Below are positions 45,219 through 47,817 of a DNA stretch of 64,000 bases, one piece after another (position 1 is the stretch's first letter; every line of letters starts with the position of its first letter). Origin of the DNA: Patescibacteria group bacterium. GTDB taxonomy: Bacteria; Patescibacteriota; Microgenomatia; UBA8517. Below the pieces are notes generated by a model that saw only the letters and a program-made list of their open reading frames with translations, made no database searches and was not told where the DNA came from. The translations under genes were made by a program, and so were the position numbers. The stretch covers positions 57,444 through 121,443 of the forward strand of contig DAITMO010000001.1 of NCBI GenBank assembly GCA_036835125.1, read 5' to 3'.

Positions 45219-46577
45219 GTGAAAAATGAAGTTCGAATAACTTTGCCCCACGACATTGCGGTACGGATTTATCCCTTTTCAAAACTTCCAATCTCAAGAA
45301 ACTTTGAAAAAATATATAAAGATTTATATTCAAAACATATTCTTGGTGAACTTAAAGAGGCCCCTTCAATGCCTGACATACCACAATATTTTACATATGC
45401 ATGTGCAAGATCATCAGGGAACAGAGAAGTAAATACCTCTTACGGATTTGGTGGGAGTGACGATGAAAAAACTTCAATAGAACACTCCATAGCCGAAGCC
45501 ATCGAACACTATTGTATTCTAAATGAGACATCAAAAAAATTTGTACAAGGATCTTACAACCAATTAAAAATGAAGGCGGTTGACCCCACTCTATTTATCC
45601 CTTTTTCTAAAAAGCAATTCTCCAAAAAAAAATATAAAAAGTTTCGTGTCTCTAAAGATTCATTCATAAACTGGCTGGGGGGGTATGATCTTACAAATTC
45701 TAAGAAAATGTTAATTCCCGCTTCATTGGCGTATGCAAACTATTCTCACAAATTACACAACGAACCCGTAATTCGTATGCCAATAAGCACTGGTGCTGCT
45801 TGTGGTCCAAATTTAGACTTTGCAATTTACAAAGGTATTTGTGAGATTATCGAGAGGGATGGATATATCATTTCTTTTATGCCTGAGGTTCCAAAACGAC
45901 TAATTTCGATCGATAAATCAAATAAAGAATTATGTAAATTATTAAACAAATTTAACAGATATAACTTCGAGGTTTATTTTTTTGACACCACACTGGATAC
46001 TGATATTTTTTCGGTTGTTTGTCTGCTCGTAGACAGAACAGGGGGTGGCCCCGCAGTGTGTTGTGGTCTAGGGGCAGGTTTAGATACAACCAACGCCTTA
46101 AAAACTTCGGCTATTGAAGCTCTCAGAAGATATGTTTCTAATAGGAATAAATATTTTTATTCCAACAGTCCTATACCTAAGAATGGTTCTTTCGAGTGGT
46201 TTAATTGGAAAAAATACCGTGAGTGGTCGTCTCCACACATGATTAAACAGGTTGAGAATATAATTAGAAATTCAAAGGAAATTCCCCTACACAAAACAGT
46301 AAAATTAAAAACAGATAAAGAATATTTAAAATATACGCTTTCTAGACTTAGAAAAGTGAAGTGTACAACTTATTATATTGATATGACAATTCCCGAGGTA
46401 GAAACGCAGGGTTTAAAAATCGTTAAGGTATTAATCCCCGAAATGGTTCCTTTGTGGCATGACGAAAGATATCCATATTTTGGTATTAAGAGACTAATTG
46501 AGATTCCAAAAAGAATGAATATACATGTCAATCTAAACATAAACACGAAAGAGTTGATAAAAATTCATCCTTTTTAA
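45219..46577 (+). CDS. YcaO-domain protein (ATP-dependent cyclodehydratase/amide-activating family), standalone
   Basis: 452 aa. YcaO signatures SYGFGGSDDEKTSIEHSIAEAIEHY and ISTGAACGPNLDFAIYKGICEIIERDG. No fused E1-like domain. Confidence 0.8.
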   Translation: MKNEVRITLPHDIAVRIYPFSKLPISRNFEKIYKDLYSKHILGELKEAPSMPDIPQYFTYACARSSGNREVNTSYGFGGSDDEKTSIEHSIAEAIEHYCILNETSKKFVQGSYNQLKMKAVDPTLFIPFSKKQFSKKKYKKFRVSKDSFINWLGGYDLTNSKKMLIPASLAYANYSHKLHNEPVIRMPISTGAACGPNLDFAIYKGICEIIERDGYIISFMPEVPKRLISIDKSNKELCKLLNKFNRYNFEVYFFDTTLDTDIFSVVCLLVDRTGGGPAVCCGLGAGLDTTNALKTSAIEALRRYVSNRNKYFYSNSPIPKNGSFEWFNWKKYREWSSPHMIKQVENIIRNSKEIPLHKTVKLKTDKEYLKYTLSRLRKVKCTTYYIDMTIPEVETQGLKIVKVLIPEMVPLWHDERYPYFGIKRLIEIPKRMNIHVNLNINTKELIKIHPF

Positions 46578-46580
46578 AAT

Positions 46581-47213
46581 ATGCATAAAAATTATCCAAG
46601 ATTAGATAAATTGGCCCTTCCAGATGTAGAAAGTATTGGCGAACTAAGAGAAAGTATTAAAACAAGGAAATCTTTTAGAGATTTTGCAAAAAAAGGAATT
46701 GATAAAAAGACACTTTCTGATATATTATATCACAGCTTGGCGGCTACTAGATGTAACCCCAATGAAGAGTTCAATCCTTTTCGGGTATATCCTTCTGCTG
46801 GAGCTAAATATCCGATTGAGGCTTATGTGCTTATTATAAAAGGGAGGGGCATCAAAAAGGGTCTTTATCATTATAACCCAATTAACCACGAGTTGGAGGT
46901 TTTATTAAAAACAATCAAAACGGAAGATATAGATAATATTTGGATGCCAAAACAGCGGTGGTTTAAAAACGCATCTGTTCTAATAATACTAACTTCCATT
47001 TTTCACAGAACAACAGATAAATATAAAAAAAGAGGGGTTCTTTTTCCTTATATTGAAGCGGGGCATATTGTCCAAAATATATATTTATTATCAGCATCTT
47101 TCAAGATCGGGTGCTGCGCTATAGGTATGCTAAACGAAAAGTCTTTAATAAAGCTCCTTGATATAAACTCTAGGGATGAATACCCGATTTATTATGTAGT
47201 CATAGGATCTTGA
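46581..47213 (+). CDS. SagB-type dehydrogenase (nitroreductase-superfamily, FMN-dependent azoline oxidase type)
   Basis: 210 aa. R-S-R-F near the N-terminus and PSAGAKYPIEAYV...GLYHYNP motifs typical of the SagB/McbC family. Starts 3 nt after the YcaO stop. Confidence 0.75.
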   Translation: MHKNYPRLDKLALPDVESIGELRESIKTRKSFRDFAKKGIDKKTLSDILYHSLAATRCNPNEEFNPFRVYPSAGAKYPIEAYVLIIKGRGIKKGLYHYNPINHELEVLLKTIKTEDIDNIWMPKQRWFKNASVLIILTSIFHRTTDKYKKRGVLFPYIEAGHIVQNIYLLSASFKIGCCAIGMLNEKSLIKLLDINSRDEYPIYYVVIGS

Positions 47214-47247
47214 CATTGGGAAATACTGGGTATATAACACAAAGCAA

Positions 47248-47817
47248 ATGCCAATAGAAATTATTAAGCGCATGCAAAAAGAGAGAGAAGAAGAGACTGC
47301 AAGACAGAATAAAATTCGTCAGGAAGAAGAGGAAAGACAAAAGAGAATAGCGGAAGAAGCTGAAAAAAAACGACTTGAAGCTATTGAGAAAAGACAACAG
47401 TTTGTCTTAGCAACAAATCAAGAAATTGAACAAGAAAGTAATTTATTTATCTATCTTCAAAAAATAGACAAAGAGCTACTTGAAGGAAATGTTAATAAAC
47501 ACCAGGTTTTTTACTTTCCAGAGAGTGGTAAGTGTGGTTTAGTCTGGGGTTCAAATTTCGTTGTTGATTCAAAAGGTCAAATCCAAGGAAATTATGATTA
47601 TTCTTCAATTGAAATCCAAATCGATCCAGACGAAAGAACAATTACCATAAATGCAACGAATTTGACTATCTTGAAAGAAAAAGAATGGAGCAATGCACAA
47701 CTGCTCGAGCTAAAACTGGCTGAGGCTTATATGGAACCACGACGCCATACAGAATATAGAGAAAGCTATTCAAGTGATCGTGATGAGGGTGGTTGCTGTT
47801 GCTGTAGCGCAAACTAG
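47248..47817 (+). CDS. Coiled-coil protein ending in a Cys4 tail (DEGGCCCCSAN), candidate substrate of the YcaO/SagB pair
   Basis: 189 aa. Highly charged helical N-terminus, a central domain, then the C-terminal GGCCCCS immediately before the stop. Lies 35 nt downstream of the dehydrogenase gene. Confidence 0.5.
   Translation: MPIEIIKRMQKEREEETARQNKIRQEEEERQKRIAEEAEKKRLEAIEKRQQFVLATNQEIEQESNLFIYLQKIDKELLEGNVNKHQVFYFPESGKCGLVWGSNFVVDSKGQIQGNYDYSSIEIQIDPDERTITINATNLTILKEKEWSNAQLLELKLAEAYMEPRRHTEYRESYSSDRDEGGCCCCSAN

Follow-up and report, generated by a model that had tools for sequence, protein, structure and literature searches.

Genes for a YcaO cyclodehydratase, a SagB-type dehydrogenase and a Cys-tailed protein

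The DNA analysed here (the window) is a low-GC stretch of 64,000 nucleotides from contig DAITMO010000001.1 of a Patescibacteria group bacterium in the Microgenomatia (assembly GCA_036835125.1, positions 57,444 to 121,443). It includes a chromosomal locus resembling a type IV secretion system (T4SS), at approximately 34.9-55.0 kb and adjoining dnaN and dnaA. Within this locus three plus-strand genes, referred to below as the trio, encode a stand-alone YcaO cyclodehydratase, a SagB-type flavin mononucleotide (FMN) dehydrogenase and a protein of 189 residues that terminates in a run of four cysteines. An original prediction, made from the sequence alone, had picked out this trio as an azole-forming module and the three open reading frames (ORFs) lie exactly where it placed them (Table 1). 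The gap between the YcaO and SagB genes is 3 nt, that between the SagB and tail-protein genes 34 nt.

The YcaO assignment is secure. PF02624 matches residues 86-409 with 165.1 bits (cutoff 25.7, E 3.3e-48) and the AlphaFold2 (AF2) model, with a predicted local distance difference test (pLDDT) value of 89, displays a single YcaO domain with the LynD-like fold, residues 1-21 being disordered. No RiPP recognition element (RRE; RiPP being a peptide synthesized ribosomally and then modified post-translationally) is found in this model. Foldseek relates it to LynD (2e-25) and also to MusD, TruD, McbD, Ec-YcaO and MJ1094, the YcaO of M. jannaschii (TMt 0.80); MusD is among the top matches at the level of sequence as well as structure. 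Six residues, Glu93, Glu96, Glu209, Glu212, Arg213 and Asp214, are invariant across 25 members of the clade and we take them to represent the acidic ATP/Mg2+ motifs of the family, the ExxE of the first long helix and the ExxER(D) block. Canonical azoline-forming YcaOs usually require an E1-like or RRE-containing partner. Neither an E1-like/ThiF nor a TfuA domain occurs in the genes scanned (34913-35530, 36570-37318, 38064-54967 and dnaA), in agreement with the earlier observation that Ocin-ThiF and TfuA partners are missing here.

The second enzyme is, as had been proposed, a SagB/McbC-type dehydrogenase, here in a minimal form, and not an ordinary nitroreductase. It gives 123.8 bits with TIGR03605 against a cutoff of 78.4, and E 1.6e-20 with PF00881. 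A catalytic Lys-Tyr motif separates azoline oxidases from ordinary nitroreductases; the pair, Lys147-Tyr148 within DKYKKRG, does not vary among 17 relatives that were aligned and coincides with the Lys-Tyr of BmdC. The nearest relatives with solved structures are 3eo7, BmdC, CyaGox and McbC.

The 189-residue protein ends ...SSDRDEGGCCCCSAN-stop. The cysteine run, Cys183 to Cys186, follows Gly-Gly, is itself followed by Ser-Ala-Asn-stop and accounts for four of the five cysteines in the protein, so the four-Cys plus Ser tail of the original prediction is present as described. The AF2 model (pLDDT 88) has four parts, namely a long, charged N-terminal helix, a compact alpha/beta domain, a linker and the tail. 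For residues 176-189 pLDDT drops below 50, a prediction of disorder that would make the tail accessible. There is no signal peptide or transmembrane segment in the protein. At E<=0.01 a scan against Pfam and NCBIfam, including the NHLP and Nif11 models, gave no match. The folded domain resembles CyaY/frataxin and the class I chaperones of type III secretion, a likeness confined to the level of the fold, since the sequence does not belong to PF01491 and the Foldseek matches are not significant; the long helix and variable tail have no counterpart in those proteins. The short precursor with an unstructured leader expected of a linear azol(in)e-containing peptide (LAP) is not what is found here, and between 45100 and 47900 there is no plausible alternative small precursor ORF rich in Cys, Ser or Thr.

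Homologues of the 189-residue protein were sought by an exhaustive HMMER profile search. Word-based searches gave 4, then 10 proteins, since their index is overwhelmed by the charged coiled coil. The family comprises at least 187 sequence clusters (representatives with E<=1e-3), 122 of them at E<=1e-10. Among the representatives listed, 55 of 154 have Cys-Cys within the last 15 residues. Gly182, Cys183, Cys184 and Cys185 are invariant in close homologues. Over ten diverse members linked to YcaO genes, two adjacent cysteines (Cys183 and Cys184) are the sole invariant feature of the tail, and the residue that precedes the run may be Gly, Glu, Asn or Asp. Other tails also recur (..DDGVHGQDSGR, ..GDRTGT[NS], ..GD[IL]GGGR, ..GW[SF]/WSIN/WSLN, ..YDGGNC and ..GSGPTN; representatives P0097-P0232 and loci L037-L041). 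Such non-Cys motifs (among them ..HGQDSGR, ..GWS/WSIN, ..YDGGNC) could act as recognition tags in place of the Cys run or could be modified in other ways; at the three examples with full context, no maturase was identified beside a non-Cys member. A eukaryote-type CaaX prenylation box (CSAN) was considered for the window protein and rejected, as homologues end CCCCGR, CCCSGSN or ECCHS with no Cys kept at position -4.

An L(X)4L-like motif, LAEAYM (47716-47733, residues 157-162), lies on the last helix of the domain about 20 residues before the cysteine run. It is LAEAYL in most homologues and is kept in members that lack the enzymes. The motif recalls the leader motif bound by the RRE domains of LynD and MprC, and it may have a purely structural role.

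Co-occurrence of the enzymes with cysteine tails

Loci related to the trio were found in metagenome-assembled genomes of Shapirobacteria, Curtissbacteria and other Microgenomates. The YcaOs at least 37% identical to that of the window form a clade of stand-alone enzymes of 436-457 residues, recovered from 11 distinct loci (the window, L001, L003, L007, L008, L009, L010, L013, L014, L015 and L026). At all 11 the YcaO gene is followed by that of a short SagB and then by one to three Cys-tailed members of the 189-residue family, which supplies the survey of related genomes that the original prediction had called for. The tails found behind the enzyme pairs are GCCCCSAN, GCCCCGR, GCCCSGSN, NCSCCRG, NCECCCEC.., GCCCETCCS and (T/G/D)ECCH... 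Every homologue encoded behind such a pair, 14 proteins in all, has kept the Cys tail, which is not a chance feature. Only the three genes are conserved; no protease, transporter or RRE protein accompanies them across the 11 loci. The tail gene is tandemly duplicated behind one enzyme pair in L003 and L006 (two copies) and L009 (three). Directly after the tail genes in L009 (9579-10964) and L013 (12992-14413) there is a radical SAM/SPASM gene, and the cysteines of these tails are interrupted by Glu or Thr (NCECCCEC.., GCCCETCCS), which suggests an additional cross-linking step of the RiPP type in these lineages.

The trio occupies a T4SS locus, as in the window, in L001, L003-6 and L008, and a rearranged T4SS region in L010, L013 and L026. 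T4SS genes are absent from its flanks in L009, L014 and L015, and downstream in L007.

A scan of metagenomes with the non-Cys members (an alignment of 16 sequences) returned five loci. Four of these, L038, L039, L040 and L041, have a family member without tail cysteines and no YcaO or SagB gene in up to 20 kb. The order there is a VirB6-like gene, a large minus-strand gene, the family gene, prgI, trsD and virB4, continuing to dnaN and dnaA. The family gene stands directly upstream of prgI in these four loci and likewise in the window, L001, L003 and L008. The arrangement is not universal, as the T4SS segments of L021 and L026 have no family member beside prgI. Since Cys-less members fill the same slot without the enzymes, the 189-residue family, and not the enzyme pair, is on this comparative evidence to be regarded as native to the T4SS locus. 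The earlier description of an azole module embedded in a secretion locus thus holds for position, but not for origin, and some copies of the trio have no T4SS genes around them.

A Cys tail accompanies YcaO-SagB in 11 of 11 loci and is found in none of the four YcaO-less loci (Fisher exact p = 7e-4, ignoring phylogeny). Cys-less homologues in syntenic loci had been named beforehand as evidence against the tail being a substrate. Such homologues do exist in L038-L041, but their loci lack the enzymes too, so that the observation becomes an argument from co-occurrence in favour of the tail as substrate.

Several minor features of these loci were recorded. Because of a frameshift or an error in assembly, two ORFs stand in place of one for the SagB of L010 (9220-9949) and again for the YcaO of L024 (342-1936), and the module may be decaying in some genomes; the split in the YcaO gene of L026 is a masked run of N. 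In L038 (6455-9927) the variable large gene is separated from the family gene by three extra genes, for an AAA+ ATPase and two unknown proteins. One of the two unknown proteins has a C-terminal zinc-ribbon-like CxxC...CxxC, and a similar zinc-ribbon protein of 282 residues is encoded after the tail gene of L008.

A sister clade of YcaOs (L016-L025, L027 and L033), 28-34% identical to the window enzyme, is found in ordinary LAP clusters. These have a Cys-rich precursor of 48-69 residues upstream, a SagB with an N-terminal extension of about 50 residues that the window SagB does not have, and an M16-like peptidase downstream. Small precursor genes precede the YcaO gene at L017:3324-3497, L018:9641-9826, L019:5647-5802, L027:8450-8596 and L033:6738-6947, an example of the product being ..KCGGNCNKCSSPTCKSTCKSCKRG, and a conserved gene for a peptidase-like protein of about 420-430 residues follows SagB in L017, L018, L019 and L033. 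Judged by these comparisons the window clade looks like a derivative in which peptidase and small precursor have been lost and the enzymes work on a protein already resident.

LAP clusters with YcaO, nitroreductase, peptidase and short precursor are known from candidate phyla radiation (CPR) bacteria (Sharrar et al. 2020, PMC7298704), and the sister clade fits that description. The window shares with these systems the phylum and the two adjacent enzyme families in the same order. It differs in that the substrate gene is downstream instead of upstream and encodes a folded protein of about 190-260 residues in place of a peptide of 48-84, in the shorter SagB, in the absence of an M16-like peptidase and in the placement of the module inside a T4SS locus in several lineages. 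The arrangement was not described in the literature searched on YcaO with T4SS, Patescibacteria, CPR or Microgenomates. Its novelty, as originally suggested, stands to that extent, with the qualification that CPR clusters pairing YcaO and nitroreductase had already been reported.

Probable thiazole formation on a retained protein tail and the alternatives

Several questions bear on the function of the trio. Is the Cys tail the substrate of the enzymes? Which chemistry takes place? Is the tail retained, and does it serve secretion? Our answers are inferred from sequence comparison and predicted structure. We think it probable that a protein of the T4SS locus receives thiazoles on its tail, with no RRE partner, peptidase or exporter involved, and keeps that tail. 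The trio would constitute a protein-tail maturation module, placed within the T4SS-like locus on the chromosome of a Patescibacterium of the Microgenomates type. A strong promoter of its own would drive cytoplasmic production of the 189-residue protein. The stand-alone YcaO, using ATP, would cyclodehydrate the tail cysteines to thiazolines, and would have to recognise the folded body or the tail directly because there is no RRE or E1-like partner; the SagB-type dehydrogenase with its FMN would then oxidise thiazolines to thiazoles. The minimal product expected from the invariant Cys-Cys is a 2,4'-bithiazole, with up to four contiguous thiazoles in the window protein. Retention of the tail is the most likely outcome since the module comes without peptidase or exporter and the body of the protein is conserved in T4SS loci that have no enzymes. 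On this view the C-terminal tag of a T4SS-associated protein (a substrate, an adaptor or an accessory) varies between lineages, and the modified tail would be one of its forms. The original preference for a folded protein with a modified tail over a small peptide is supported by the comparative evidence.

Two characterized systems help to place this proposal. In the first, the YcaO MprC and the oxidase MprD convert the C-terminal Cys core attached to folded NHLP leaders of 81 residues to thiazole (Wakeel et al. 2025, PMC12455567). A stably folded leader, a C-terminal Cys core and recognition between proteins are features in common with our reading of the window, and no precedent for such recognition comes nearer. 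Unlike the window YcaO, MprC keeps an RRE and a contact based on L(X)4L. The NHLP leaders are related to nitrile hydratase, whereas the window protein is unrelated and twice as long and, unlike those leaders, has Cys-less orthologues in a secretion locus that lacks the enzymes.

The second is the microcin B17 synthetase McbBCD. McbD and McbC make adjacent azoles, as 4,2-fused bis-heterocycles, from neighbouring Cys and Ser residues; the E1-like scaffold McbB is required, the substrate is a peptide of 69 residues, and cleavage of the leader and export follow. McbD is a YcaO and McbC a SagB-type enzyme, as in the window, and both are detectable relatives of the window proteins. The scaffold, the small substrate, leader cleavage and export, by contrast, have no equivalent in the window.

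Certain observations weigh against our proposal. The usual E1-like or RRE partner is missing, and activity of a partner-less YcaO on the Cys tail is an assumption. The score with TIGR03604, the SagD family, is slightly below the curated cutoff, 215.1 bits as opposed to 219.25, with E 1.4e-63 over positions 1-376 of the 377 in the model. The 15 loci of the co-occurrence test are not phylogenetically independent. On a rough neighbour-joining tree the Cys state is clustered, requiring 22 changes compared to about 44 for shuffled labels; the Cys-tailed members do not form a clean clade on this tree, only a clustering, and their monophyly was not upheld. A protease encoded elsewhere could release a small peptide. 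Finally, since the trio also occurs without T4SS genes (L009, L014 and L015), a T4SS-related role of the modification is not required.

The 189-residue protein might be a classical RiPP precursor with an unusually large folded leader, comparable to NHLP and Nif11, from which the last 7-10 residues are cut to release a tiny polythiazole, the T4SS neighbourhood being incidental or an export route. We regard this as unlikely. The standard LAP clusters of the sister CPR clade, with their 48-69-residue precursors and M16-like peptidase (PMC7298704), are consistent with it, as are the tandem duplication of the tail gene, common among RiPP precursors, the radical SAM/SPASM co-maturases of L009 and L013, the Gly-Gly directly ahead of the cysteines in the window protein and the acceptance of folded NHLP leaders by another pair of YcaO and oxidase (PMC12455567). 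A peptidase or transporter, however, is conserved in none of the 11 trio loci and is absent from the window locus, no cleavage motif is conserved before the cysteine run, and the body of the protein persists in the same T4SS slot in lineages without Cys tails or enzymes. The last point implies a function for the body itself beyond that of a leader. The tail could instead bind a metal (Fe-S, Zn or Cu) or be acylated, with the YcaO and SagB acting elsewhere on a pilin or small peptide. Clustered cysteines are common metal ligands, the folded domain resembles an iron-binding fold and no RRE partner guides the YcaO to the 189-residue protein. We judge such a role improbable nonetheless, given that the enzymes strictly co-occur with and adjoin the Cys tails, even where detached from T4SS and pilin genes, that no other small Cys/Ser/Thr-rich ORF offers itself in or around the trio and that pilin arrays occur just as much where YcaO is missing.

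Other YcaO chemistry, be it thioamidation, amidine formation or ATP-dependent proteolysis, coupled with a nitroreductase-fold protein that does not act on azolines, we consider very improbable. YcaOs without an E1-like partner do include thioamide formers, and the structure of MJ1094 matches closely; the top matches include MusD, which is a YcaO that acts as a peptidase, and the marginal TIGR03604 score points the same way. Against this, the locus has no TfuA or sulfur-donor gene and the model for McrA thioamidation, TIGR03266, scores 69 against a cutoff of 365. The Cys-Cys signature is the classic nucleophile of cyclodehydration. The invariable partner, moreover, is a dehydrogenase of the SagB family with the azoline-oxidase Lys-Tyr motif, a pairing that makes sense only if azolines are formed.

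To our knowledge YcaO/SagB chemistry is found almost exclusively on small peptides that are cleaved and exported, and normally depends on an RRE-containing partner. The enzymes, their chemistry and CPR YcaO-nitroreductase pairs are already known. New with respect to the literature searched are the substrate family, its place in a T4SS locus, the co-variation of enzymes with Cys tails and the absence of an RRE partner and peptidase. If thiazoles are indeed formed and retained, azole formation would extend from natural products to the post-translational modification of a folded protein of about 190 residues, by a minimal two-enzyme system for placing thiazoles on protein C-termini. Should the tail be cleaved instead, the trio would define a new long-leader LAP subclass making very small polythiazoles. 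On the first of these readings the family, being upstream of prgI with lineage-specific tails and, in one branch, dedicated enzymes, is a testable candidate T4SS substrate, adaptor or accessory. A wider and distinctly more tentative extension is that this is an undescribed Microgenomates T4SS family with an exchangeable C-terminal tag, one class of which is converted to a bithiazole or polythiazole kept on the folded protein. If so, a full-size protein connected with a secretion machine would for the first time be seen to carry an azole modification, installed by a YcaO that works without an RRE partner.

Transcription signals and the surrounding T4SS locus

Coordinates of the trio, its subfeatures and the neighbouring genes are given in Table 1.

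Table 1. Features of the trio and of the surrounding T4SS-like locus in the window
Feature	Position	Strand	Basis or remarks
Stand-alone YcaO cyclodehydratase, SagD-like, 452 aa	45219-46577	+	GTG start; no fused or neighbouring E1-like/RRE domain
SagB-type FMN azoline dehydrogenase, minimal form, 210 aa	46581-47213	+	TIGR03605, PF00881
189-aa Cys-tailed protein, proposed substrate	47248-47817	+	Ends GGCCCCSAN
N-terminal helix, 63 residues (2-64), long, charged	47251-47439	+	AF2
Compact alpha-beta5-alpha domain, frataxin-like fold, residues 66-167	47443-47748	+	AF2
Disordered Ser/Asp-rich linker and tail, residues 170-189	47755-47814	+	AF2
Four consecutive Cys codons, TGC TGT TGC TGT, C183-C186	47794-47805	+	Predicted heterocyclisation sites
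Extended -10-like element TG-n-TATTAT, 6 nt before YcaO GTG	45204-45212	+	Sequence inspection
Promoter-like element of tail gene, TTGACA (47210-47215), 17 nt, TATAAC (47233-47238), 9 nt to ATG	47210-47238	+	
Promoter-like region of prgI: GTGAA 47824-28, -35 TTGAAT 47841-46, TTCAC 47854-58, -10 TAGGCT 47863-68	47824-47868	+	
Eight tandem, highly divergent VirB2-like pilin genes, opening the T4SS locus	34913-38021	+	PF18895
913-aa secreted protein and 564-aa polytopic VirB6-like membrane protein	38064-42553	+	No Pfam match
852-aa protein, divergent, variable slot	42586-45144	-	No Pfam or NCBIfam match
PrgI/VirB3-like T4SS membrane protein, conserved start MEQHQIPQ	47904-48950	+	PF12666, 30.5 bits (cutoff 27); longest ORF from 47850
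TrsD/TraC-like protein, related to VirB4 N-terminal region	48951-49667	+	NF041427, NF045975
VirB4 ATPase, CD1110/MPF-FATA type	49664-51616	+	NF045971, 375.8 bits (cutoff 325); PF19044, 6e-28
944-aa membrane protein and 158-aa Big_5 protein, distal T4SS locus	51623-54967	+	Order common to L001, L038 and L041
dnaN, after the T4SS locus	54968-56092	-	
dnaA, after the T4SS locus	56300-57658	-	

The extended -10-like element in front of the YcaO gene recurs as TGnTA(A/T)(A/T)AT, 6-8 nt before the start, in L001, L003, L007 and L009, and as plain TAAAAT without the TG in L013; a simple consensus scan did not list it as there is no -35. The tail gene has a promoter-like element of its own. The stop codon of SagB, TGA (47211-47213), is contained within its -35, and loci with YcaO and loci lacking it alike have an element of the type TTGAC(A/T)-16/17-TATAAT 8-10 nt ahead of the start of the family gene. 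From these two observations the enzyme pair appears to have been placed precisely ahead of a transcription unit that already existed. That the -10-like elements are only 6-10 nt from the start codons implies that the YcaO and tail-gene mRNAs would be leaderless or nearly so. Where YcaO is absent, the family gene's longest ORF opens with a conserved pseudo-peptide (MTLCLGRYTLAGK), which is actually this promoter-like DNA.

An inverted repeat, GTGAA(AAAG)...CTTCACG, brackets the -35 in front of prgI. It recurs at identical spacing in every other locus examined (L001, L038, L040 and L041), irrespective of the presence of YcaO, and looks like an operator for a putative regulator of T4SS genes. The gap between the tail gene and prgI is 32 nt if the longest ORF is used and, more likely, 86 nt, because the start MEQHQIPQ (ATG at 47904) is conserved; the ENA gene calls likewise give a PrgI of 348 residues. 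There is no terminator-like site between genes on the plus strand and read-through is possible. The trio is co-oriented with the T4SS genes downstream and tightly spaced internally, as had been claimed, but the wider gap to prgI departs from that picture, and the evidence does not bear out one operon running from YcaO to virB4, since conserved promoter-like elements precede both the tail gene and prgI.

The components around the trio identify a Patescibacteria T4SS resembling the MPF-FATA class, with a monoderm-type VirB4, PrgI/VirB3, a TrsD-like protein and a VirB2 array near dnaA. PF18895 matches three of the four pilin members tested, two of them above the gathering cutoff, and the others have the same length and the pattern of two transmembrane segments. 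The first pilin gene, encoding 205 residues, has an extra Cys-rich N-terminal region. The TrsD-like assignment draws on matches to NF041427 (TrsD, 1.9e-8) and NF045975 (1.5e-9), both under their cutoffs, and to PF26593 (TraC-like) in orthologues. The 913-residue and VirB6-like proteins have orthologues at the same position in L001, L008, L038, L040 and L041. No coupling protein is encoded in the window and no relaxase was seen in the T4SS locus.

Such systems were surveyed recently (Quinonero-Coronel et al. 2025, PMC12102498), VirB2 arrays being typical of Microgenomatia. According to the survey, Saccharimonadia cannot do without the T4SS for epibiotic growth. The survey and the window agree in monoderm VirB4, TrsD, PrgI/VirB3, VirB6-like protein, VirB2 arrays and proximity to dnaA/dnaN, and also in that no relaxase was seen. 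The survey names no T4SS substrates or accessory factors; YcaO and nitroreductase have no occurrence in it, and the family of about 190 residues upstream of prgI is undescribed there.

The 852-residue protein encoded divergently ahead of the YcaO gene sits in a variable slot. The occupants, at 42586-45144 on the minus strand in the window and at L001:5163-7898, L041:7323-9968, L040:7555-9630 and L008:5964-7868, belong to at least two families without detectable mutual similarity, and none of those scanned (the window, L038, L040 and L041) matches Pfam. The protein was rejected as a part of the module, the slot types being unrelated and one of them common to a locus with YcaO and one without, namely that of L001_911, which is homologous to L041_881 (1e-141). 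These variable-slot proteins may be lineage-specific effectors or surface proteins.

Between prgI and the TraC-like gene, the genome most closely related has a gene of the bAvd/23S_rRNA_IVP family (123 residues, L001:11769-12140) that the window lacks; diversity-generating retroelements have this family as their accessory variability determinant. The window also contains the origin region, with dnaA, dnaN and yidC at 54968-59431, and, at 26058-30368, four tRNA-Ser genes, one tRNA-Arg gene and a tmRNA gene (29967-30368) whose tag ends ..PMYAQAFA.

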